From an uncultured Candidatus Bathyarchaeia archaeon (GTDB lineage Archaea > Thermoproteota > Bathyarchaeia > Bathyarchaeales > Bathycorpusculaceae), in NCBI GenBank assembly GCA_964477645.1, contig CAYZEP010000001.1, positions 1-51,643 on the forward strand: DNA of 51,643 nucleotides, written 5' to 3'. Below the pieces are notes generated by a model. The model saw nothing but the letters and a program-made list of their open reading frames with translations. It ran no database searches and was not told where the DNA came from. The stretch's first letter is position 1, and each line of letters opens with the position of its first letter. Below are positions 9,592 to 51,643 of the stretch, piece after piece. Both the position numbers and the translations under genes were made by a program.

Positions 9592-10035
9592 ATGCCCAAT
9601 AGAAGGAAAAGGTCAATTCTTGATATAATAAGCGAATATTTTGAAAACTTGGAGGAAATGGCTGAACAATTAGAAGAAAGACTCATTGAGAAACCAAGCT
9701 GGGACCTGAAAGCTTGCGCGTTTGAGCCGCTTCGTGACATAATGGTGACCCCTACAGAAGTCATAGTGACCGTTGATTTACCCTTAACTGAAGAGAACAC
9801 AATACAAGTTAAACCAGTAGAGAAGGATACACTTGAAATATCGGCAAGAATGAAGCGGAAGATACGGTTCGAGGACTTCGGTATAACACATCAAAAGGGC
9901 GAGTTTCAAACATTTCACTGCCACACGCGTATCCCAGTGCAAGTCCACATGGACAAAATGCATTTCCGATTTAAAAAGGGAATACTTGAAATTCACCTAC
10001 CACGCAAACATGAACATACAATTTCAATAGAATAG
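9592..10035 (+). CDS. Hsp20/alpha-crystallin-domain small heat-shock protein
   Basis: 147 aa. The core VTVDLPLTEENTIQVKPVEKDTLEISA....F..RIPV....KMHFRFKKGILEIHLPRK follows the alpha-crystallin-domain beta-sandwich pattern. It starts 15 nt after the PAC2-like gene. Confidence 0.6.
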   Translation: MPNRRKRSILDIISEYFENLEEMAEQLEERLIEKPSWDLKACAFEPLRDIMVTPTEVIVTVDLPLTEENTIQVKPVEKDTLEISARMKRKIRFEDFGITHQKGEFQTFHCHTRIPVQVHMDKMHFRFKKGILEIHLPRKHEHTISIE

Positions 10036-12917: not shown

Positions 12918-13493
12918 ATGAGTTCAATTGAAAGGGAAGGGATATATTTTAAGGAAGCAGGCTCGCAAAATACTGATGCTTTATTGAATCATGTCAAAAA
13001 ATATATGAAAAAAGAAGGTATAAAAGACATTGTAGTTGCTTCAACAACAGGTGAAACGGGAGCAAAAGCATCTAAAACCTTCAAAGGATACAATGTTGTT
13101 ATCATCACACACTGCCATGGTTTCCAAGAACCTGGAAAAAGCGAATTACTAGAGGAGCATAAAAGAGAGATTCTGGCAAATAGAGCGAAGATTTTCACAG
13201 GTGTCCACGCTTTAAGCAGTGCAGAACGGGCAATTCGCAAGAATTTCAGTACGATCCAGCCCTTAGAATTGATCGCTAATACTCTTAGACTTATGGGAGA
13301 AGGAACAAAAGTATGCGTAGAAATCACCTTGATGGCAGCAGACGCGGGTTTAATTCCAGTTGACAAAGATATTGTTTGCATCGCCGGGACAGGACAAGGC
13401 GCAGACACCGCGCTTCGGATAAAACCTGCAAACGCCGCAAGATTCTTCGATTTAAAAATAAGAGAAGTTATAGCAAAACCCCACGACTTCTAA
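12918..13493 (+). CDS. conserved archaeal protein resembling the pyruvate-kinase C-terminal alpha/beta domain family
   Basis: 191 aa. VVASTTGETGAKA and IAGTGQGADTA glycine-rich loops. Assigned from memory of a COG1751-like family; function unknown. Confidence 0.4.
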   Translation: MSSIEREGIYFKEAGSQNTDALLNHVKKYMKKEGIKDIVVASTTGETGAKASKTFKGYNVVIITHCHGFQEPGKSELLEEHKREILANRAKIFTGVHALSSAERAIRKNFSTIQPLELIANTLRLMGEGTKVCVEITLMAADAGLIPVDKDIVCIAGTGQGADTALRIKPANAARFFDLKIREVIAKPHDF

Positions 13494-13502
13494 GAAGAGT
13501 GG

Positions 13503-14354
13503 ATGTATAAGATAATGAAAGTTGATGACAAACAAGTCGAAGAATTAGTTAAGAAATGGTTCACAAAAACGTCTCGCCACGAATGGCGACGCTTACAGCG
13601 AGACCCATATCACCAAATCGAGTTTATTGTCACCATGCACTTCCTTGAAAAGTATCTACCGAAACACGGCTTAGTTTTGGATGCTGGAGGAGGACCAGGC
13701 AGATATGCAATTGAATTGGCAAAGCGAGGTCACGACGTTATCTTATTAGACCTTGTTCCAGAAATGCTGAAACTCGCGAGAAGGAAAATTAAGAAGGCGG
13801 AGGTTCTGGGAAAAGTCAAGCAGCTTGTGCAAGGTTCCATTGAAGATTTATCCATGTTTGCCGACGAAAAATTTGACGCTGTGTTATGTTTAGGAGCACC
13901 CCTAGGTCATTTGTTAAATGTTAAACAAAGGGAAAAAGCTGCTTCAGAGCTTACACGCGTTGCGAAAAGAGACGCCCCAATTTTTGTCTCAGTCATCAGC
14001 CGCATCGGATTACTAAGAACAATATTCATTAGATTCCCACATGAAATGCAATATGCAAAACACCACTGGGAAGTTGGCGACTACATTCCAGGTCTACAAG
14101 GAGAAGGCTTCACAGCAGCCCATTGGTTCTTGCCAGAGGAATTACGCGAACTTTTTGAGAGACAAGGCGTAGAGACATTGGAGATGGCGGGTCTGGAGGG
14201 ACTTTCTTCCCACCATGAAAAGGAAACAAACAGGCTTTTCAAGGATCAGGAAAAGTGGAAACAGTGGATTGAAATTCTGCTAAAAATTTGCACGCACCCT
14301 TCAGTTGTTGGAAGCACCGAACACTTTTTACTTGTCGGCAGAAAACATGGTTAA
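13503..14354 (+). CDS. class I SAM-dependent methyltransferase
   Basis: 283 aa. Motif I VLDAGGGPGRYAIELAKRG, then the acidic residue in VILLDL. Confidence 0.75.
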   Translation: MYKIMKVDDKQVEELVKKWFTKTSRHEWRRLQRDPYHQIEFIVTMHFLEKYLPKHGLVLDAGGGPGRYAIELAKRGHDVILLDLVPEMLKLARRKIKKAEVLGKVKQLVQGSIEDLSMFADEKFDAVLCLGAPLGHLLNVKQREKAASELTRVAKRDAPIFVSVISRIGLLRTIFIRFPHEMQYAKHHWEVGDYIPGLQGEGFTAAHWFLPEELRELFERQGVETLEMAGLEGLSSHHEKETNRLFKDQEKWKQWIEILLKICTHPSVVGSTEHFLLVGRKHG

Positions 14355-14388
14355 CACAGGCACGCACTTACAATACGAGGTTTAAACC

Positions 14389-15396
14389 ATGTCTTCAGAA
14401 AACGCCATAGAAGTCTCGAACTTAACAAAGTATTACGGTAAATTGCTGGCAGTTGATCATATCAATTTTGAGGTCAAGCGCAAAGAGCTATTTGGATTGC
14501 TCGGACCTAACGGCGCTGGAAAGACAACAACCATCCGTATGATTTGTGGTATGCTCAGACCTACGGGTGGATCAGTTGTTGTAGCTGGCTTTGATGTGTC
14601 TAAAAAACCAGAGGAGGCCAAACGAAGAATCGGTTTAGTCCCTGACATCTCAAATCTGTTCGGGGAATTAAGCGCTAGAGTAAACTTAGAGTTCATGGGA
14701 AAATTGTATGGTTTAGACAAAAAGACACGCCGAGAACGAATTGACCAAGTTCTTGAACTTTTCCAATTAAAGGACCGAGGAAACGACCTAATCAAGTACT
14801 ACAGTAAGGGCATGCATCGGCGTTTAACCATAGCGGCAGCCCTCATCCACCAGCCCGAAATCCTAGTTATGGACGAACCAACCAGTGGCTTAGACGCCCA
14901 AACAGCAAGGTTAGTTAGAGAAATTATCATTAACCTCAACAGGGAAGGCAGAACCGTGCTCTTAACCACCCATCAGATAGACGAAGCAGACCGACTCTGT
15001 CAACGTGTGGGCATAATTGACCACGGTCGCGTAATCGCATTAAACACGCCAGCAGAACTAAAAGACAGCACAGAGGGCACACGCGCCCTAGAAATCAAAG
15101 TCCTAAACGGTGTAGATCAGCAACGATGGCTCCCCATCCTCAGTGGGGCTGAAGGTGTGGACCAAGTCTTCTTGGCAGAGGGAAAGGTAAGAGTATTGTC
15201 TAAGGATTTGCCCCAAGTAATTCCAACAATTGTGAATCTCATTAACAAACATGGTGGAAAAATTGAGAACATCTCAGTAGCGCAACCTACCTTAGAGGAC
15301 GCTTTTATAAATCTGACGGGTAGAAGCATTCGAGAGGAATCTATGTCGAAGGAAGATTATCTCAGGAGAAGATTATCTCGGAGTGGAATGAGATGA
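14389..15396 (+). CDS. ABC transporter ATP-binding protein (ABC-2 exporter type)
   Basis: Walker A GPNGAGKTT, signature YSKGMHRRL, Walker B ILVMDEPTSGLD, H-loop TTHQ. Confidence 0.9.
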   Translation: MSSENAIEVSNLTKYYGKLLAVDHINFEVKRKELFGLLGPNGAGKTTTIRMICGMLRPTGGSVVVAGFDVSKKPEEAKRRIGLVPDISNLFGELSARVNLEFMGKLYGLDKKTRRERIDQVLELFQLKDRGNDLIKYYSKGMHRRLTIAAALIHQPEILVMDEPTSGLDAQTARLVREIIINLNREGRTVLLTTHQIDEADRLCQRVGIIDHGRVIALNTPAELKDSTEGTRALEIKVLNGVDQQRWLPILSGAEGVDQVFLAEGKVRVLSKDLPQVIPTIVNLINKHGGKIENISVAQPTLEDAFINLTGRSIREESMSKEDYLRRRLSRSGMR

Positions 15397-16142
15397 AAAC
15401 ATTCAAACCTCTGATGCATTCTATCTACATCGCTGAAAACGACTTGCGGCAATCGTTCAAGTCAGTACGCCATGTGGTGTGGAGTCTTCTCTTCCCAATA
15501 TTCATGATGTTAACCTTTAGTTTTAGATATGGTGCTGTTGGACTAGACCCTGCGTTTATGAATTTTCTCATACCGGGCATTGTAGCCATGACTGCCATGT
15601 TCGGAAGCATCAATGAAACCATGAGTATAGTTTGGGACAAATCTTTAGGGGTGTTTGACCGTATTTTGGCAGCTCCAGTTTCATCTACTTCTATTATAGT
15701 TGGGAAGACTATGGCAGGTGCGGTCATGGGCGTTATAAGCGCTCTTGTTTTGCTCGTTATAGGCGAGTTGTTCTTCAGTGTTTCATTTATCAACATCGGT
15801 ATTGTTCTCATGATTATCGTGCTTGCAAGTTTTTCTTTCACAGGTATTGGAACAATAATATCTGGCTTAGCGTCTGAACCAAGGGAAGCTATGATGCTCT
15901 CGAATCTTCTTAGGTTTCCAATGATGTTCCTAGGCGGCGTTTTCTTTCCTATTGAGACGATGCCGATGCCGCTTCCTTACGTGGCTAGAGCTCTTCCGCT
16001 TACATACGCAACAGAAGCATTAAGGGCTGCTATGACCGGAAACATGAGTGTGGTTTTATTTGATGCACTTGTGCTTTTAGTTTATACAATAAGTACAATG
16101 GTAGTCGGTTCAAAGATATTGATGAGAGTCATGACGAGATGA
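15393..16142 (+). CDS. ABC-2 family transporter permease
   Basis: 249 aa with about 6 hydrophobic helices. A 4-nt overlap (ATGA) with the ATPase gene suggests translational coupling. The last 26 nt lie inside the left 68-bp direct repeat. Confidence 0.8.
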   Translation: MKTFKPLMHSIYIAENDLRQSFKSVRHVVWSLLFPIFMMLTFSFRYGAVGLDPAFMNFLIPGIVAMTAMFGSINETMSIVWDKSLGVFDRILAAPVSSTSIIVGKTMAGAVMGVISALVLLVIGELFFSVSFINIGIVLMIIVLASFSFTGIGTIISGLASEPREAMMLSNLLRFPMMFLGGVFFPIETMPMPLPYVARALPLTYATEALRAAMTGNMSVVLFDALVLLVYTISTMVVGSKILMRVMTR

Positions 16143-16184
16143 ACTTACTGTTATGCAGAGCATGGTTAGACGTTATTGCTTTCG
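16117..16184. repeat. left copy of a perfect 68-bp direct repeat (putative attL)
   Basis: tattgatgagagtcatgacgagatgaacttactgttatgcagagcatggttagacgttattgctttcg is identical at 16117-16184 and 19620-19687. Identity breaks at both ends (a/c before, t/c after). Confidence 0.9.
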
Positions 16185-16277
16185 TTTTATTCGTAAGGAA
16201 AGTTCCGTTGCATAAACTATTTTTCCGAAAACTATTAGAGTTTAATCTGAGAAATACACTATTGGAGGAAGGGGCTT

Positions 16278-18587
16278 ATGAGAAGGTTAATTTTTCTCCT
16301 CATCATTTTGATTGTCTTGTATTTGGTTTCTTTTTTTGTTTCAGGATACAGTCAATCTTCTGAGCACACGACTTTCAGAAATACTAAGATTGAAGGCTTG
16401 AGTGTCTACTTCTTCTATGGTGAAGGATGCCCGCATTGTACTAAAGTCAAACCTTTCATCGATGAGATGGAGAGATCCTATGGTTTGAATATTGAGCGGT
16501 TTGAGGTTTACGGAAATAGAGCGAATATGAAGCTAATCCAAGAATATTTTGAGAGATACAACGTTCCAGTCAATAATAGGGGAGTCCCGGCTGTTTTTGT
16601 GTCAGATTCTTATCTTGTCGGTGACGTGGATATTCTCAATGGTCTTGAAAATCTTGTATCAAACTCAGTGACCGCTGATTCCGAAACGGCTCAGTTGTCG
16701 AATGAGGGTAACAGCGAAGAATGTACTTCTAATGGTTACGATTGTTTATCATTCTTGACTATTACTGCTGCTGCCTTGGTTGATTCTGTTAATCCTTGTT
16801 CTATTGCTATTCTTTTCTTTTTGATGGCTGGTTTGCTTTTGCTTCGGAATCGCAAAAGGGCTTTGAGAGTTGGTTTGGCCTTTGCTTTATCCGTCTTTCT
16901 TGCAAACTTGTTGTTTGGATTAGGAATATTTTCAACGCTTTCTGTGAGCGGCTTTTCTTCTATTTTTGATACTGTTGCTGGTTTTGTAGCTATTTTGACT
17001 GGTATCTTGCTGGTTAAGGATTGTTTTTTCCATGGGAAAGTGATCGCTATGGAAGTACCTCGTTCTTTGCAGCCTTATTTGAAACATAGACTGAGTGAGG
17101 CTTTTTTTGGAAAATCTTCAAGAGTTTTGGGAGCCTTTCTTATAGGTTTTCTTGTCACCTTATTTGAGATTCCTTGTACTGGAGGACCATACTTTTTTGT
17201 TTTGGCTAGGATGGCTGATGATGCAACTAGAATGCAGACTATTCCAATATTGCTGTATTACAATTTGATTTTTGTTATGCCCTTGATTCTAATCTCGACT
17301 CTGCTCTATTTCGGCTCGATTCAGGTTGAGAGAGTAAGAGAATGGAAAGACAGGAACAAGCAGTTTTTAAATTTGGTTAGGGGTTTGCCGCTGATTGCGG
17401 TGGGTTTCGTAACTATTTCAACGTCTCTAGTGATTCAATGGATGAGTGTAGCATTAAGCGTTTATAGAGCAGCTTTCATTCCCTTGATTGGGCCCGTTGC
17501 TTCTTACATAGTTTATCAAATATTTTCAAAGTCAAAATACAGGGTTAAAGCTTTGAAATATCTAACCGTTGTTGGAATAGGCAGTACTCTCTTTTTGGCT
17601 GCGATATCAAATGCTCAAACAAGTTTTCTAGGCAACCCCGGAGAAACGGGATCAGAAACTAAGAGTTATCAAGTAACGGGTGAGGCTACTACTGCAACGA
17701 CTATTCAACCTTACACAGACTGTGAAGCTGAAGGTGGAAGATGTATGATGGGTTCAATGGGATGTAGCATTGCGTGCAAACGAATGAATTATGCTATGGG
17801 GGTTTGTGAACTTGGTCTTCCTAGTTTAGGCTATTATCCGGGCTGTGGTGAGAGAGATTGCTGTTGTTTTTGCGTGGGTGAAAAAGAAAATTGTACAGAT
17901 GTAGATAAAGATGGTTATGCTATAGAGGGTGGGAATTGTGGACTAATAGACTGTAATGATGCTGATGCTAGTGTTCATCCAGGAGCAGTTGAAATTTGCA
18001 ATGGAATTGATGATGATTGTGATGAACAAGTAGATGAAGGTGATATTTGTGTAGGTTGTGTAAAAGTAAAAGTTGTAAATGAAACTGATGATCCAGTTCA
18101 AGCTGATGTTATTTTAGACTGTCTCACAGCTATTGGTTCTACTAATTATGCTGGATCTGCAGTGAGCTGTAATCATGGGAAAATACCTGGATTTTATTAT
18201 GTAGATGCTTTTATTGGTTTTCCTTGTTATGGTGAATCATATATCAACATAGACGAATATGGCACTGGGTATGCAGAAATTGGATCTTCAGATTGTGTAT
18301 GGTACGATGAAAATTGTATGGGAGGAAGTTCACTTACTACCACAATAACAACCACCTCTTCAACAACTACAACTGTTTCCAGTGACGGTGGTAGCCTAAA
18401 TACAACTACATCCACAACCTCTTCAACAACTACGACAATTTCTTGTCAGTGTACTGAATGGAAGAATACCTTCGAATGTTGTAATATAGATAGAAAATGG
18501 CGGAGTAAAGGTAATTTATTCGAAAGAACTTGTAACCCAAGGGGTTGTGATATAGAAAAAAGATGTAAGACTTCTAAAATTCTTTGA
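16278..18587 (+). CDS. multi-domain membrane protein: signal anchor, thioredoxin-like domain (CPHC), DsbD/CcdA-like transmembrane thiol-disulfide transporter, extra TM helices, cysteine-rich extracellular domain with Ser/Thr-rich stalks
   Basis: 769 aa. YFFYGEGCPHCTKV is thioredoxin/glutaredoxin-like. LVDSVNPCSIAILFF and LFEIPCTGGPYFF carry the two conserved membrane Cys of the DsbD_2/CcdA family. DCNDADASVHPGAVEICNGIDDDCDEQVDEG matches the MopE-type putative metal-binding repeat. There are roughly 29 Cys after residue 480, and two TSSTTTT linkers. GGAGGAAGGGG precedes the ATG. Confidence 0.7.
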   Translation: MRRLIFLLIILIVLYLVSFFVSGYSQSSEHTTFRNTKIEGLSVYFFYGEGCPHCTKVKPFIDEMERSYGLNIERFEVYGNRANMKLIQEYFERYNVPVNNRGVPAVFVSDSYLVGDVDILNGLENLVSNSVTADSETAQLSNEGNSEECTSNGYDCLSFLTITAAALVDSVNPCSIAILFFLMAGLLLLRNRKRALRVGLAFALSVFLANLLFGLGIFSTLSVSGFSSIFDTVAGFVAILTGILLVKDCFFHGKVIAMEVPRSLQPYLKHRLSEAFFGKSSRVLGAFLIGFLVTLFEIPCTGGPYFFVLARMADDATRMQTIPILLYYNLIFVMPLILISTLLYFGSIQVERVREWKDRNKQFLNLVRGLPLIAVGFVTISTSLVIQWMSVALSVYRAAFIPLIGPVASYIVYQIFSKSKYRVKALKYLTVVGIGSTLFLAAISNAQTSFLGNPGETGSETKSYQVTGEATTATTIQPYTDCEAEGGRCMMGSMGCSIACKRMNYAMGVCELGLPSLGYYPGCGERDCCCFCVGEKENCTDVDKDGYAIEGGNCGLIDCNDADASVHPGAVEICNGIDDDCDEQVDEGDICVGCVKVKVVNETDDPVQADVILDCLTAIGSTNYAGSAVSCNHGKIPGFYYVDAFIGFPCYGESYINIDEYGTGYAEIGSSDCVWYDENCMGGSSLTTTITTTSSTTTTVSSDGGSLNTTTSTTSSTTTTISCQCTEWKNTFECCNIDRKWRSKGNLFERTCNPRGCDIEKRCKTSKIL

Positions 18588-18736
18588 TTATAATGTTTGC
18601 TAACATATTTGCAAGAAATAGCAGTTATCAAAGTGAAAAATGCTGAAAGTACCGAAAACAATCGGAAGGGTTAAAAGGAATAAACGGCAAATCACACATT
18701 CATAACCAATTTCTAATATTCGTCTAATCTTGATTT

Positions 18737-19444
18737 ATGGGCTCAAAAATAATCGTTAATCCAGAAGCACTATCGAAATCGTACATTCCCGAAAAACTTG
18801 TGAATAGAGAAAAAGAATTCGATCAACTTTCAAACATTATAGGCGTATCTGACACATTCTGTTATGGTCCGACTGGTTCGGGAAAGACAATCCTCATTAA
18901 ACATGTTATTGAAAATCACAACTCAACAAAAAAAGGAAGAGCAAATTACGTAGACTGTTCTCTCTATCAGACTACCAACGCAATATTCCACGAAATCCTA
19001 ACCGCTTTAAACAGCATTGTGGTAAGCAAAAGCAATTATGAGTTAACAAAAAGGCTAAATTCAAAAATAAAGCATCTCGAGAGTTCATTGACAATTTGTT
19101 TAGATCATTTTGAACATTTAAAAGAAATCGAAACTCTGAACAGAATTTTAAGCCTTGGTCTCAACTTGGTAATAATTGCAGAGACATATGATTCTTACAG
19201 AAAACTGAACCAGCAAATCAAAGCAAACATAACAAGTTTGATAGAAATTCCAAGTTATACAGCAGATCAAGTCTTCGATATACTTATGGACAGAGCTGAA
19301 GAAGCACTTGAAAAGTACACCTACTCAGAAGTTACAATAAGAAAAATCGCAGAGGCAAGTTCTGGTAACGTCACACTTGCTTTGAATCTACTAAAGTCAC
19401 CACACTTTAAACCCAAAAGGAAAACTTTTTCCAAATTTCAATAA
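18737..19444 (+). pseudogene. Orc1/Cdc6-like AAA+ initiator paralog, truncated and degenerate
   Basis: 235 aa. It is colinear with the N-terminal two-thirds of Orc1/Cdc6: YIPEKLVNREKEF, Walker A GPTGSGKT, and a GNVTLALNLLK equivalent of GDARRALDLLR. Walker B is degenerate (ICLDHFEH). The frame stops right after the lid motif, and no winged-helix domain follows. Confidence 0.55.
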
Positions 19445-19619
19445 ACAATTCGCAATTCTTTCGCATCCAACATTTCTAGATGCCTTCTGTCTACATCCAC
19501 CTTGCTGGAGAAGATATCGATGAAGCACAATGCATTTTGAGTGGAATGACTAAGGTCAAAAAAGAAGATGAACGACTCAAACCTCAAAACTCAAAAACGA
19601 CTCAAAACGACTCTCTCTC

Positions 19620-19687
19620 TATTGATGAGAGTCATGACGAGATGAACTTACTGTTATGCAGAGCATGGTTAGACGTTATTGCTTTCG
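19620..19687. repeat. right copy of the perfect 68-bp direct repeat (putative attR)
   Basis: Identical to 16117-16184. It contains the last 19 nt, including the stop, of the reverse-strand GNAT gene. Confidence 0.9.
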
Positions 19688-20097
19688 CGCTTGCTGAAAT
19701 ATATTATGTCACGGTGTTCAACATAGCCGCATTCTCTGAACAGCTCCTTTGATGCAACGTTGTAATCTTCGATTAAGGCACAGAAAATTCTGATATCATG
19801 TTTTCTAAACACCTTTTCAGATTCAACAATCAATGCTTTAGCAATTCCACGCTGCCTAAAATCTGAGTCAACAGCTAAGCGATTTATCCAACCCTTTCGC
19901 ATATCACAGCTTAGAATAACCGTTCCGACAAGGCGATTATCCTCAAAGGCTCCGAGAAAAAATTCAGGGCTTGCATCCATTTGTGCGGATATTGCCTCTT
20001 TGCTGTCCCTTCCTTTCGGTTTGAACGGCAACCTAGCCCTAGACCAGAGTTGGATCATTTCTTTGAAATCTTTAATCGTTAATCTTCGAATTTCCAT
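19669..20097 (-). CDS. GNAT-family N-acetyltransferase
   Basis: 142 aa. VDSDFRQRGIAKALIVESEKVF (RxxGxA acetyl-CoA motif) and ELFRECGY. Confidence 0.75.
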   Translation of the reverse strand: MEIRRLTIKDFKEMIQLWSRARLPFKPKGRDSKEAISAQMDASPEFFLGAFEDNRLVGTVILSCDMRKGWINRLAVDSDFRQRGIAKALIVESEKVFRKHDIRIFCALIEDYNVASKELFRECGYVEHRDIIYFSKRESNNV

Positions 20098-42942: not shown

Positions 42943-43299
42943 ATGGTGAAAACAAAGAAAGGAAAAAGCTGTAAAAGGAACAGAAAATCAGAAAGAACCA
43001 AAAACTCCAACGCTTTCGTTATTACAGACTTCACAGCTTCTTTAAACCAAAAAACAGAACAAGCCAAGCGACAAACATATATCTCCAGTAGAAGAGAAGG
43101 GGTGGCTTCTTCACACAAAAGAGACAAGAAAGAGTCAATAAAAGCAAGAGAAAACGCCAAAAAGCAACATTATAAAGTGAACTTCACAACATTTTTACAA
43201 AAAGTGAATAAAGTTAAGAAAAAACTTCTCGATTTACCCAATCCTTCAAGTTTTTCTAAAAAAGCTAAATTCAAAGGAAGGAAAAAAGGAGCAAAATAA
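42943..43299 (+). CDS. possible highly basic Lys/Arg-rich protein (may be non-coding A-rich origin-flanking DNA)
   Basis: An internal ATG of track ORF 42811..43299 gives MVKTKKGKSCKRNRKSERTK...KKAKFKGRKKGAK (118 aa). The + strand here is strongly A-rich, which by itself keeps frames open. Confidence 0.25.
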   Translation: MVKTKKGKSCKRNRKSERTKNSNAFVITDFTASLNQKTEQAKRQTYISSRREGVASSHKRDKKESIKARENAKKQHYKVNFTTFLQKVNKVKKKLLDLPNPSSFSKKAKFKGRKKGAK

Positions 43300-43333
43300 G
43301 CCAGAGGAAATTGTGACGCAATATTAAAAGGAA

Positions 43334-43360
43334 GTGACACCCCTCTGTTTCCATTGGAAA
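43334..43360 (+). promoter_or_regulatory. origin recognition box ORB1
   Basis: gtgACACCCCtctGTTTCCatTGGAAA combines the dyad TTCC..TGGAAA with a C/G string, as in archaeal ORB elements. It matches 20 of 27 positions with the reverse complement of 43514-43540. Confidence 0.8.
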
Positions 43361-43513
43361 ATAAAACTAAAGCAGTATTAACTATTTCTTACTTTTTCTC
43401 TTAAAGTCTAAAATTTTAAAGAAGAATTATTATTAACCTTTTTCCATTCCTTACCTTTCAGAGTATATTTCTCTTCTAAAGAAATCTAAATTATCTTTTA
43501 AAGTTAAAACAGA
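43361..43513. other. AT-rich duplex unwinding element of oriC
   Basis: A 153-bp stretch between the inverted ORBs, dominated by A/T runs (taaaattttaaagaagaattattattaa, ctaaattatcttttaaagttaaaa). Confidence 0.7.
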
Positions 43514-43540
43514 TTTCCACAGGAAACTTTGGGGTGTGCC
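43514..43540 (-). promoter_or_regulatory. origin recognition box ORB2 (inverted relative to ORB1)
   Basis: + strand TTTCCACAGGAAACTTTGGGGTGTGCC is a TTCCACAGGAAAC dyad followed by a GGGGT string, close to the ORB consensus remembered from Pyrococcus and Sulfolobus origins. Confidence 0.8.
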
Positions 43541-43684
43541 ATCCCGTTTACGTAGCTCTTTGCTATAGTATGCAGGCTTTTCTTTTAGGATTCTTGTGTG
43601 CGAGATTTACTTTTTTGTATGACAGAGCTTATTTTTTATGTCAAAAAGATGAGGCGTTACACTTTGGCTATAAAGAGGAATAAA

Positions 43685-44935
43685 ATGAACGACAATAGCA
43701 TACTTGACAATGTGTTCGAAAAATTCGTAAGTAACGCAAAGATCTATAGGGATAGAGAAGTTCTTCGGCATGATTATTTACCTGACAGACTGCCACATCG
43801 AGAAGAGCAGATTACACAGCTCGGGGAAACAGTAGCTCCCGTCTTAAAGGGTGCAAGAAACTCCAACATATTTATTTATGGAAAAACTGGGACAGGCAAG
43901 ACAGCTGTAACAAAATATGTGCTGAGTCACCTCGAGGTTAAAGCAAAGGAGTTTAACGCGCCTGTTAAGTTTTGTTACGTGAACTGCCGCATAGCCGGGT
44001 CAGAATATCGTGTCTTTGCCAGTTTATGCCAAAGTATAGGCGCGCCTGTTCCTTTCACCGGCTTGTCCGTTGGGGAAGTTTTTGATAGATTTAGAAAAGG
44101 TTTGGATGCTTCTGGAATTATTCTTATCATAGTTTTGGATGAGATTGATGCGTTAATAAAACCAAACAGTGACACTCTCCTTTATGAATTAACGAGAATA
44201 AACGAGAACTTAGGTAAGAGCAAAGTATCTCTCGTTGGCATATCTAACGATCTTCGGCTGAAGGAATTTCTTGACCCGCGTGTTTTGAGTTCTCTTAGCG
44301 AGGAAGAGATTGTTTTTAGGCCTTATGACGCCAGCGAATTAGGGAACATTCTCCTTGAACGTGCAAAATCGGCGTTTTACGATGGTGCGCTGTCCTCTAG
44401 TGCTCTGAGTCTTTGCGCTGCTTTGGCTGCTGCAGAGCATGGTGATGCTAGGCGAGCTTTGGACTTGCTGCGTGTTGCAGGTGAAGTTGCTGAACGAAGC
44501 GGTGCAAGTGTTGTGGTTGAAGAACACGTCCGAGAAGCTGAAAAGCATATTGAACACAATCGCATCACTGAAGCGCTTAAAGATCTAACTCTACATTCAA
44601 AACTTGTAGTTTTAAGCGTCTATTACTTGAATAAAACGGGTGTTCACCGCGCTATCACCGGCGAGATTTACGAAGTTTACAGTGAACTATGTGGGGAACT
44701 GAGACTTATGCCTTTAACGCAACGGCGTTTAGGCACATTGGTGAATGAACTTGATTCCATGGGACTTTTGAATGCCAAGGTCATAAGCATGGGAAGATAT
44801 GGACGCACAAAAAAGATTAGGTTGGAGGTAGCACGTACTCTTGTTAGAGATATTTTCGCAGACGACGATAGACTTGGATGCTTGAGTGACTATGAGCCGA
44901 AATGTCTTTCAAAACGTGCCAACAGTAGGAGTTGA
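43685..44935 (+). CDS. orc1: Orc1/Cdc6 replication initiator
   Basis: LRHDYLPDRLPHREEQ, Walker A YGKTGTGKT, Walker B IVLDEIDAL, sensor/lid GDARRALDLLRVAGEVAE and a C-terminal winged helix. The ATG at 43685 was chosen over the longer track ORF (43598). Confidence 0.9.
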   Translation: MNDNSILDNVFEKFVSNAKIYRDREVLRHDYLPDRLPHREEQITQLGETVAPVLKGARNSNIFIYGKTGTGKTAVTKYVLSHLEVKAKEFNAPVKFCYVNCRIAGSEYRVFASLCQSIGAPVPFTGLSVGEVFDRFRKGLDASGIILIIVLDEIDALIKPNSDTLLYELTRINENLGKSKVSLVGISNDLRLKEFLDPRVLSSLSEEEIVFRPYDASELGNILLERAKSAFYDGALSSSALSLCAALAAAEHGDARRALDLLRVAGEVAERSGASVVVEEHVREAEKHIEHNRITEALKDLTLHSKLVVLSVYYLNKTGVHRAITGEIYEVYSELCGELRLMPLTQRRLGTLVNELDSMGLLNAKVISMGRYGRTKKIRLEVARTLVRDIFADDDRLGCLSDYEPKCLSKRANSRS

Positions 44936-51515: not shown

Positions 51516-51643
51516 GCCGGGGTGGCGGAGTGGTTAACGCGCTGGCCTCGAGATCAAGGACCTATATATAAGGGGGCTAGATACAATGAGACAAGTAAGC
51601 CAGTGGGCCTTCGGGCTCGCAGGGGTTCGAATCCCTTCCCCGG
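51516..51643 (+). tRNA. tRNA-Ser(CGA) with a 45-nt intron; the 3' end is cut by the window edge
   Basis: Acceptor GCCGGGG pairs with CCCCGG(C). D arm GCG-GAGTGGTTAA-CGC. Anticodon stem CTGGC/GCCAG with loop CTCGAG[intron 51553-51597]A. Long variable arm TGGGCCTTCGGGCTCGC. T arm AGGGG-TTCGAAT-CCCTT. Confidence 0.85.

Follow-up and report, generated by a model that had tools for sequence, protein, structure and literature searches.

How did a stretch of AT-rich DNA come to lie between two perfect copies of a 68-bp sequence at the junction of two convergent genes in an uncultured archaeon? The question is raised by a stretch of 51,643 nucleotides (contig CAYZEP010000001.1 of assembly GCA_964477645.1, from a Candidatus Bathyarchaeia archaeon), referred to as the window, in which a 3,435-bp segment (16185 to 19619 of the forward strand) separates an ABC-2 permease gene from a GNAT acetyltransferase gene. 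A sequence-only reading of this DNA had described the segment as an insertion, being either a decayed element or one mobilized in trans. Our analyses indicate that this Bathyarchaeia chromosome most probably carries a cryptic integrated element in a decayed state, which would have entered by att recombination catalyzed by a tyrosine recombinase before its integrase, together with part of its replication gene, was lost.

The 68-mer TATTGATGAG...ATTGCTTTCG occurs at 16117 to 16184 (the left copy, attL) and at 19620 to 19687 (the right copy, attR), neither copy being assigned a strand. The 100% identity of the two copies stops sharply, with no extra base on either flank, confirming the perfect repeat reported by the sequence-only reading, and, given the size and composition of the window, ~8e-32 such 68-bp pairs would be expected by chance. 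attL consists of the terminal 26 nt of the permease gene (stop codon included), a 23-nt intergenic spacer, and a 19-nt duplicate of the end of the GNAT gene, whereas attR holds the functional 19-nt 3' end of the GNAT gene (stop codon included) and a duplicate of the permease 3' end. The host permease gene (15393 to 16142, forward strand; PF01061, E = 3e-30) and the host GNAT gene (19669 to 20097, reverse strand; PF00583, E = 7e-15) have their 3' ends inside attL and attR, respectively. Both genes are intact, and the ends of their open reading frames (ORFs) agree with the earlier assignment of 26 and 19 nt to the two copies. The C terminus of the permease agrees with that encoded by contig L090, described below, and the C terminus of the GNAT protein agrees with those of its relatives. 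Positions 12 to 19 of the 68-mer form an 8-bp perfect palindrome (GTCATGAC; 16128 to 16135 and 19631 to 19638) located in the coding end of the permease gene; it may be coincidental or may represent a recombinase core feature. The exact 47-nt core of the repeat had no match in the metagenome contigs of the Joint Genome Institute (JGI).

Direct repeats flanking an insert are also produced by target-site duplication, through a transposase or casposase or through staggered-break repair. We hold this origin to be extremely improbable here, since a length of 68 bp far exceeds, as far as is generally known, that of such duplications, since the insert lacks terminal inverted repeats, and since the gene fragments that it contains (see below) belong to a tyrosine-integrase module. 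The target-site duplications of casposons are 14 to 15 bp long. Comparison of the 80-nt termini of the insert revealed no terminal inverted repeats, the longest run being 6 nt. Neither a transposase nor Cas1 was found in a Pfam scan of the five ORFs of at least 74 amino acids that touch the insert (15393 to 20097), the other frames having received no profile search. The sequence-only reading was thus correct for the inverted repeats and, among the ORFs scanned, for the transposase, but its statement that no integrase is visible does not stand, as a 36-codon remnant of such a gene is present at 19480 to 19587.

The uninterrupted junction was found in relatives. Gene order on either side of the region is kept in the related metagenome-assembled genomes (MAGs) of Bathyarchaeia, in which the flanking aminotransferase has its best relatives (84 to 89% amino acid identity). 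In most Bathyarchaeia species representatives, GNAT directly faces, in convergent orientation, a homologue of the PK_C-like gene of the window (12918 to 13493), and the methyltransferase gene, the ABC-2 transporter genes, and the repeat-bounded segment are all missing. The ABC-2 transporter is therefore a lineage-variable neighbor, because GNAT faces the PK_C-like gene in most related genomes. Scanning of JGI metagenome contigs with the permease identified closer relatives, including three independent contigs (L090, L091, and L092) in which an ABC ATPase gene, the permease gene, and the convergent GNAT gene follow each other without interruption. L090 is the closest of the three, with amino acid identities of 95% for the ATPase, 91% for the permease, and 84% for the GNAT protein, against 80 to 87% for L091 and L092. 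Comparison of L090 with the window from which the insert had been removed revealed a single copy of the 68-mer region, with 62 of 68 bases identical and a 5-nt indel; this junction is the single-copy homologue of attL. Both genes terminate in L090 with almost the same residues as in the window. Since the three contigs display the empty junction, the 68-mer is native host sequence and positions 16185 to 19619 are an insertion, and the empty permease-68-mer-GNAT site that the sequence-only reading had expected in relatives thus exists. A larger island extending from 13503 to 19668, which would include the methyltransferase and the ABC transporter, was also considered as an explanation for the repeat, given that GNAT faces the PK_C-like gene in most GTDB relatives. 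It was rejected because L090, L091, and L092 have the transporter beside GNAT without the insert and because the transporter genes are host-like in composition.

The slot between the PK_C-like and GNAT genes is itself variable among Bathyarchaeia and is empty in most relatives, as observed by comparing positions 12918 to 20097 of the window with contigs L007 to L014, L021, L029, L048, L068, and L090 to L092. It contains an MFS transporter gene in L012, an insert of comparable size in L029, a methyltransferase gene in L021, and, in L091 and L092, the ABC-2 transporter genes but no methyltransferase; in the window, methyltransferase and ABC-2 transporter genes occur together. The GNAT gene is absent from L048, L011, L016, and L035.

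The composition of the insert is foreign relative to that of the host. Its GC content is 37.2%, versus 42.5% in the rest of the window, and lies below that of all 825 windows of equal length elsewhere (minimum, 40.4%; z = -5.4). Its tetranucleotide distance is the maximum of the window among stretches of the same size (z = 5.5). GC content at third codon positions is 0.29 and 0.31 for the two interior genes, and all of the 42 other genes have higher values (minimum, 0.325). The compositional difference claimed from hand counts therefore holds on proper computation. The counts themselves were exact (38.3% at 16321 to 16440 and 50.0% at 15001 to 15120), although the latter value is a local peak.

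A compositionally deviant segment bounded by one repeat could alternatively be a free circular plasmid of 3.5 kb, comprising the interior and one 68-mer, that shares this 68-mer with an empty chromosomal site and was threaded into the contig by the assembler. Logan contigs (k = 31) of three sequencing runs (SRR8652712, SRR8652713, and SRR8652715) bear on this possibility. In all three runs, such contigs encode the permease and both interior proteins in exactly matching form. The contigs of the left flank (L001 to L003) stop at window position 16146, and that of the interior (L004) spans 16155 to 19649, so that each of them terminates exactly 30 bases inside the 68-bp repeat. Because contigs built with k = 31 break 30 bases into the repeat, the raw reads of each of the three runs contain it in two different contexts. 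For any k below 68, an integrated copy and a free circle accompanied by an empty site give one identical graph (left flank, repeat, interior, repeat), and this result is therefore as expected for a plasmid as for an insert. The presence in the unit of a gene resembling a replication initiator also speaks for a plasmid. Against it, the deposited 51.6-kb contig passes through both copies of the repeat, and the interior was found together with the exact permease allele in every run. In addition, the DNA-binding winged-helix end is missing from the Cdc6-like gene, and the 36 integrase codons lie in a patchwork of fragments, a state typical of an immobilized insert and not of a replicon that is maintained. 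On balance, we give little credence to a free circle. No record of the exact GNAT and aminotransferase proteins was found, leaving the right flank untraced in other assemblies.

The reading as an integrated element is supported by the gene content of the right part of the insert, which begins with a truncated gene for a short Cdc6-like AAA+ protein (18677 to 19444, forward strand; ORF at 18737 to 19444, 235 amino acids). Its AAA+ and lid domains are present, the product matching TIGR02928 (E = 5e-24) over profile positions 1 to 249 of 366. Identity to the host Orc1/Cdc6 protein (43598 to 44935) amounts to just 26%, but the product displays 60 to 78% identity to a family of proteins of ~320 amino acids from metagenomes and from MAGs labeled Bathyarchaeota, Aenigmarchaeota, and Helarchaeota. 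Alignment with seven of these relatives revealed a match up to residue ~221 followed by divergence, with ~100 residues gone, including the winged-helix-like end. Homology is detectable at the DNA level from 18677 to 19398, and that to full-length relatives ends near 19398 to 19420. An Orc1/Cdc6 initiator combines AAA+ and lid domains with a C-terminal winged helix, and the latter is missing here. The alignments thus identify the ORF as a truncated member of a short Cdc6-like clade associated with mobile genetic elements, in agreement with the earlier description of the gene as a remnant. No relatives of the protein were found among the viral contigs of IMG/VR.

The second fragment, located at 19480 to 19587 on the forward strand, is a tyrosine recombinase remnant of 36 codons that correspond approximately to residues 291 to 326 of integrases of 391 to 399 amino acids and include the catalytic tyrosine. 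Comparison of five integrases with the whole window by tblastn led in each case to this same place (E = 5e-15 to 2e-3), and no other integrase fragment was detected in the window, its left end included. The integrases encoded next to intact relatives of the Cdc6-like gene align with the remnant over the catalytic-tyrosine tail (e.g., MASIYVHLSGRDIDAALLAIQGI), with E values of 2e-4 to 2e-3. A database search with the remnant retrieved one relative, protein P0121 on contig L173, with 75% amino acid identity over the 36 codons and 79 of 108 nt identical; the E value of 5e-15 in the tblastn comparison is that of the L173 integrase tail. L173 reads in frame from the edge of the contig through PYLIRHSRITPASK into a zinc ribbon, and P0121 is therefore the tail of an intact integrase. 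On each side of the remnant, 60 nt display only chance-level identity to L173, indicating that the window keeps just codons ~291 to 326 of the gene. Profile scans of the remnant (36 to 66 amino acids) with Pfam and NCBIfam revealed nothing, as did a motif search in the first 86 loci, and the fragment was recognized only by direct comparison with P0121 and with the integrases encoded beside Cdc6-like homologues. The remnant points outward, its 3' end being 32 bp from attR. An integrase gene lying beside the att site in such an outward layout is the classical arrangement of phage lambda. Because this remnant adjoins the right repeat, the first of the two alternatives offered by the sequence-only reading, a decayed element, is preferred.

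Between the Cdc6-like and integrase fragments lies a piece of ~17 codons on the reverse strand (19430 to 19479, RNVGCERIANCLLKFGK), which derives from the small ORF that trails the Cdc6-like gene in intact modules and is inverted here. Positions 19430 to 19477 match positions 1642 to 1689 of L170 (minus strand), at the start of this small ORF, with 43 of 48 nt identical by blastn (~90%), the minus-strand product of the window being RNVGCERIANCLLKFGK, against RNVGCEKIANCLVKFGD in L170. From these comparisons, the right 0.9 kb of the insert is thus a mosaic assembled from three pieces of a single known module. The heptamer ACGACTC is present three times (ACGACTCAAAC, ACGACTCAAAAC, and ACGACTCTC) at 19572 to 19613 on the forward strand, in the interval that separates the integrase remnant from attR, and nowhere else on either strand of the 51.6-kb window. 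The three copies may have arisen by slippage or may serve as arm sites for a recombinase.

The module itself was defined from four distinct contexts (L087/L088, L089, L170, and L171/L172). In all four, one to three small ORFs come after the Cdc6-like gene, and after these a convergent gene encoding a PF00589 integrase of 391 to 399 amino acids; the intact modules are at 10001 to 13604 of L087, 8853 to 11326 of L089, 732 to 3325 of L170, and 10001 to 12489 of L171. Pfam analysis of two of the integrases detected an N-terminal SAM-like domain in int89 and a C-terminal zinc ribbon in both, the match being weak in the second, and the remaining two contain a Cys-x-x-Cys pattern in their tails, as in the pair matched by Pfam. 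The fragments of the window resemble these modules, with 71 to 76% nucleotide identity over ~720 nt for the Cdc6-like gene, 90% over 48 nt for the small-ORF piece, and 42 to 57% amino acid identity for the integrase piece. The modules differ from the window in being complete and embedded in clusters of 10 to 20 kb rich in defense-like genes, whereas the window lacks such companion genes and has its small-ORF and integrase pieces oriented oppositely relative to the Cdc6-like gene. Neither a single inversion nor a single deletion of an L170-type module accounts for the window; both were rejected, as the order of its fragments is not derivable in this way.

The modules are flanked by genes for SMC/AAA_23, DUF87, N6_N4 methylase, GmrSD_N, AIPR, SLFN_AlbA_2, PIN, and Metallophos proteins, and a second Cdc6-like AAA gene is often found beside them. 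Between MAGs labeled as different phyla, the identity of their Cdc6-like proteins is 60% or more. In L087, three copies of a 69-nt sequence (67 to 78% identity to the reference copy) are found, directly upstream of the integrase gene at 13660 to 13827 and another 2.8 kb away at 16610 to 16678, and bracket a cellulase/dockerin gene.

Proximity of an integrase remnant to the repeat also bears on a third account, in which a circle that had captured the host junction was inserted by a Campbell-type single crossover, through host homologous recombination and in the absence of a site-specific recombinase. One crossover within the shared 68 bp would yield precisely such perfect repeats, their length being that of the homology, and captured host DNA would easily explain the exact match to a lineage-specific sequence. 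Nevertheless, 68 bp is in our judgment short for efficient homologous recombination, the remnant occupies the classical position, 32 bp from the repeat, and all of the related intact modules encode an integrase. Integration by host recombination alone is, on these grounds, improbable, and we retain insertion by the integrase of the element.

Comparison with known systems suggests a likeness of this integrase, through its relatives, to the pNOB8-type enzymes. The split between SSV-type and pNOB8-type integrases is based on a KxxR versus a YxxR motif and on whether the int gene is partitioned (PMC8371274). As for pNOB8-type integrases, the int gene adjoins the att site and is not split by integration, and the L173 protein (PYLIRHSR) and int171 contain Y-x-x-R as the second catalytic box, the feature that defines the pNOB8 type (PMC8371274). 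Unlike this type, the other members of the module have H-x-x-R, and all carry a C-terminal zinc-ribbon extension. The diagnostic YxxR box of the R...YxxR...Y catalytic signature is deleted from the remnant of the window, so that the likeness rests on its relatives. The SSV-type ("suicidal") integrases, too, are tyrosine recombinases of archaea, encoded by integrative elements whose att sites are long. They differ in having attP inside the int ORF, so that after integration int(N) lies at one end of the element and int(C) at the other, whereas the window has a fragment at the right end only. An SSV-type split gene had been considered because the ORF of the remnant runs through attR without a stop; it was rejected since no zinc-ribbon or integrase piece is present at the left end.

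For the element as a whole, the closest parallels are the cryptic integrated elements (CIEs) of Thaumarchaeota (Krupovic et al. 2019, PMC6563490). The targets of archaeal integrated elements include the 3'-distal parts of genes that encode proteins as well as intergenic regions, att sites are 29 to 69 bp long in crenarchaeal elements with a median of 17 bp in thaumarchaeal elements, and a Cdc6/Orc1 homologue is the replication protein of some CIEs and of some integrative and conjugative elements (PMC6563490). The element of the window resembles thaumarchaeal CIEs in its small size, in the lack of virion and conjugation genes, in the att direct repeats that flank it, in its target (3'-distal and intergenic, verified against the empty site of a relative), and in its Cdc6/Orc1 homologue. 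The differences are the Bathyarchaeia host, the 68-bp att site, which is inside the crenarchaeal range, the heavy decay, and the fact that the att site of the window spans two convergent gene ends at once.

The repeat, the uninterrupted junction of relatives, the deviant composition, and the related gene fragments are direct observations, and they are consistent with the following history. A circular element would have encoded a short Cdc6-like initiator, small accessory ORFs, and a zinc-ribbon tyrosine integrase, and its attP would have been identical over 68 bp to the host sequence extending across the convergent 3' ends of the permease and GNAT genes. Recombination between attP and attB by the integrase would have inserted the circle and duplicated the 68-mer as attL and attR. 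Since the shared 68-mer was duplicated, both host genes would have kept their native ends. Insertion would have been followed by no fewer than two deletions and by one or more inversions, with the loss of ~290 N-terminal and ~70 C-terminal integrase codons, of most of the small ORF, and of the winged-helix end of the Cdc6-like gene, while the gene for the 769-residue surface protein described below would have been kept as an intact ORF. With an integrase reduced to 36 codons and a truncated initiator, the element is presumably unable to excise or replicate on its own. It could be lost through recombination between the repeats, or a related integrase could act on it in trans.

Several observations weigh against this history. 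No intact integrase is present, and we infer the recombination mechanism from a remnant of 36 codons and its relatives. The integrase gene is on the strand opposite to the Cdc6-like gene in the four modules but on the same strand in the window, where the scrap of the small ORF is inverted. No att-like direct repeats were found around the intact relatives upon searching 10-kb flanks. attP needed to match the host exactly over 68 bp, yet the nearest relative differs at six positions and by an indel; this exact identity therefore implies either that the element had a history in the same lineage or that the copies were homogenized later. Finally, the k = 31 graphs look the same whether the copy is integrated or a free circle coexists with an empty site.

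The left part of the insert is taken up by a cargo gene, which is separated from attL by only 93 bp (16278 to 18587, forward strand). It is intact, is the sole obviously functional content of the insert, and encodes a protein of 769 amino acids with a thioredoxin/glutaredoxin-like start, a DsbD/CcdA-like membrane domain, and an extracellular tail composed of a MopE-type Cys-rich motif (PF11617, E = 3e-11) and a Thr-rich part. Its relatives (P0123 to P0151) have the N-terminal 55 to 60% of the protein in common, with 52 to 60% identity, and differ in their extracellular ends, which are of the NosD/beta-helix, CARDB, dockerin, or MopE type. The family is characterized by a conserved half, made of thioredoxin and a DsbD-like membrane domain, fused to interchangeable extracellular domains. 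We found no link of this protein family to mobile elements.

The preserved repeats raise the possibility that the insert is not inert. Two perfect att sites and the cluster of three ACGACTC copies near attR remain, for which reason movement in trans is possible. On this reading, the insert would be a relic of a widespread archaeal integrative family and would persist as a nonautonomous cargo mini-element, which a full-length L173-type integrase could still excise or move in trans. We regard this proposal as unlikely. The family proposed would be characterized by a Cdc6-like initiator of ~320 amino acids, small ORFs of the winged helix-turn-helix type, and a zinc-ribbon tyrosine integrase, often carrying defense genes, and is found in MAGs labeled Bathyarchaeota, Aenigmarchaeota, and Helarchaeota. 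Keyword searches of the literature retrieved no description of a family combining a short Cdc6 with a zinc-ribbon integrase.

Elsewhere in the window, the most AT-rich 500 bp (43001 to 43500, 31% GC) are located directly upstream of the cellular Orc1/Cdc6 gene (43598 to 44935), which is full length and encodes a Cdc6_C winged helix. Positions 43001 to 43500 are a candidate for the replication origin of the chromosome; the only repeats detected at 43001 to 44935 were short and weak. Rfam detected a tRNA at 51516 to 51643 that is cut by the end of the window, while ARAGORN reported no tRNA in the window. This tRNA probably holds an intron, since 128 nt cover 69 positions of the model.

The element belongs to an ordinary and well-documented kind of integration event, and current understanding is unchallenged by it. 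Its value is that of an annotated case and of a lead to an element family. Bathyarchaeia are abundant and uncultivated archaea whose mobile elements are barely charted, and the locus provides a clean case of site-specific integration in this group, verified by an empty site, in which the att site rebuilds two convergent gene ends at once. The intact gene for the thioredoxin/DsbD-like surface protein represents a cargo that outlived its vehicle. The recurrent association of a Cdc6-like gene with a zinc-ribbon integrase gene is a possible marker for finding integrated elements in these archaea, and this module may mark a broadly distributed, little-described archaeal integrative family.

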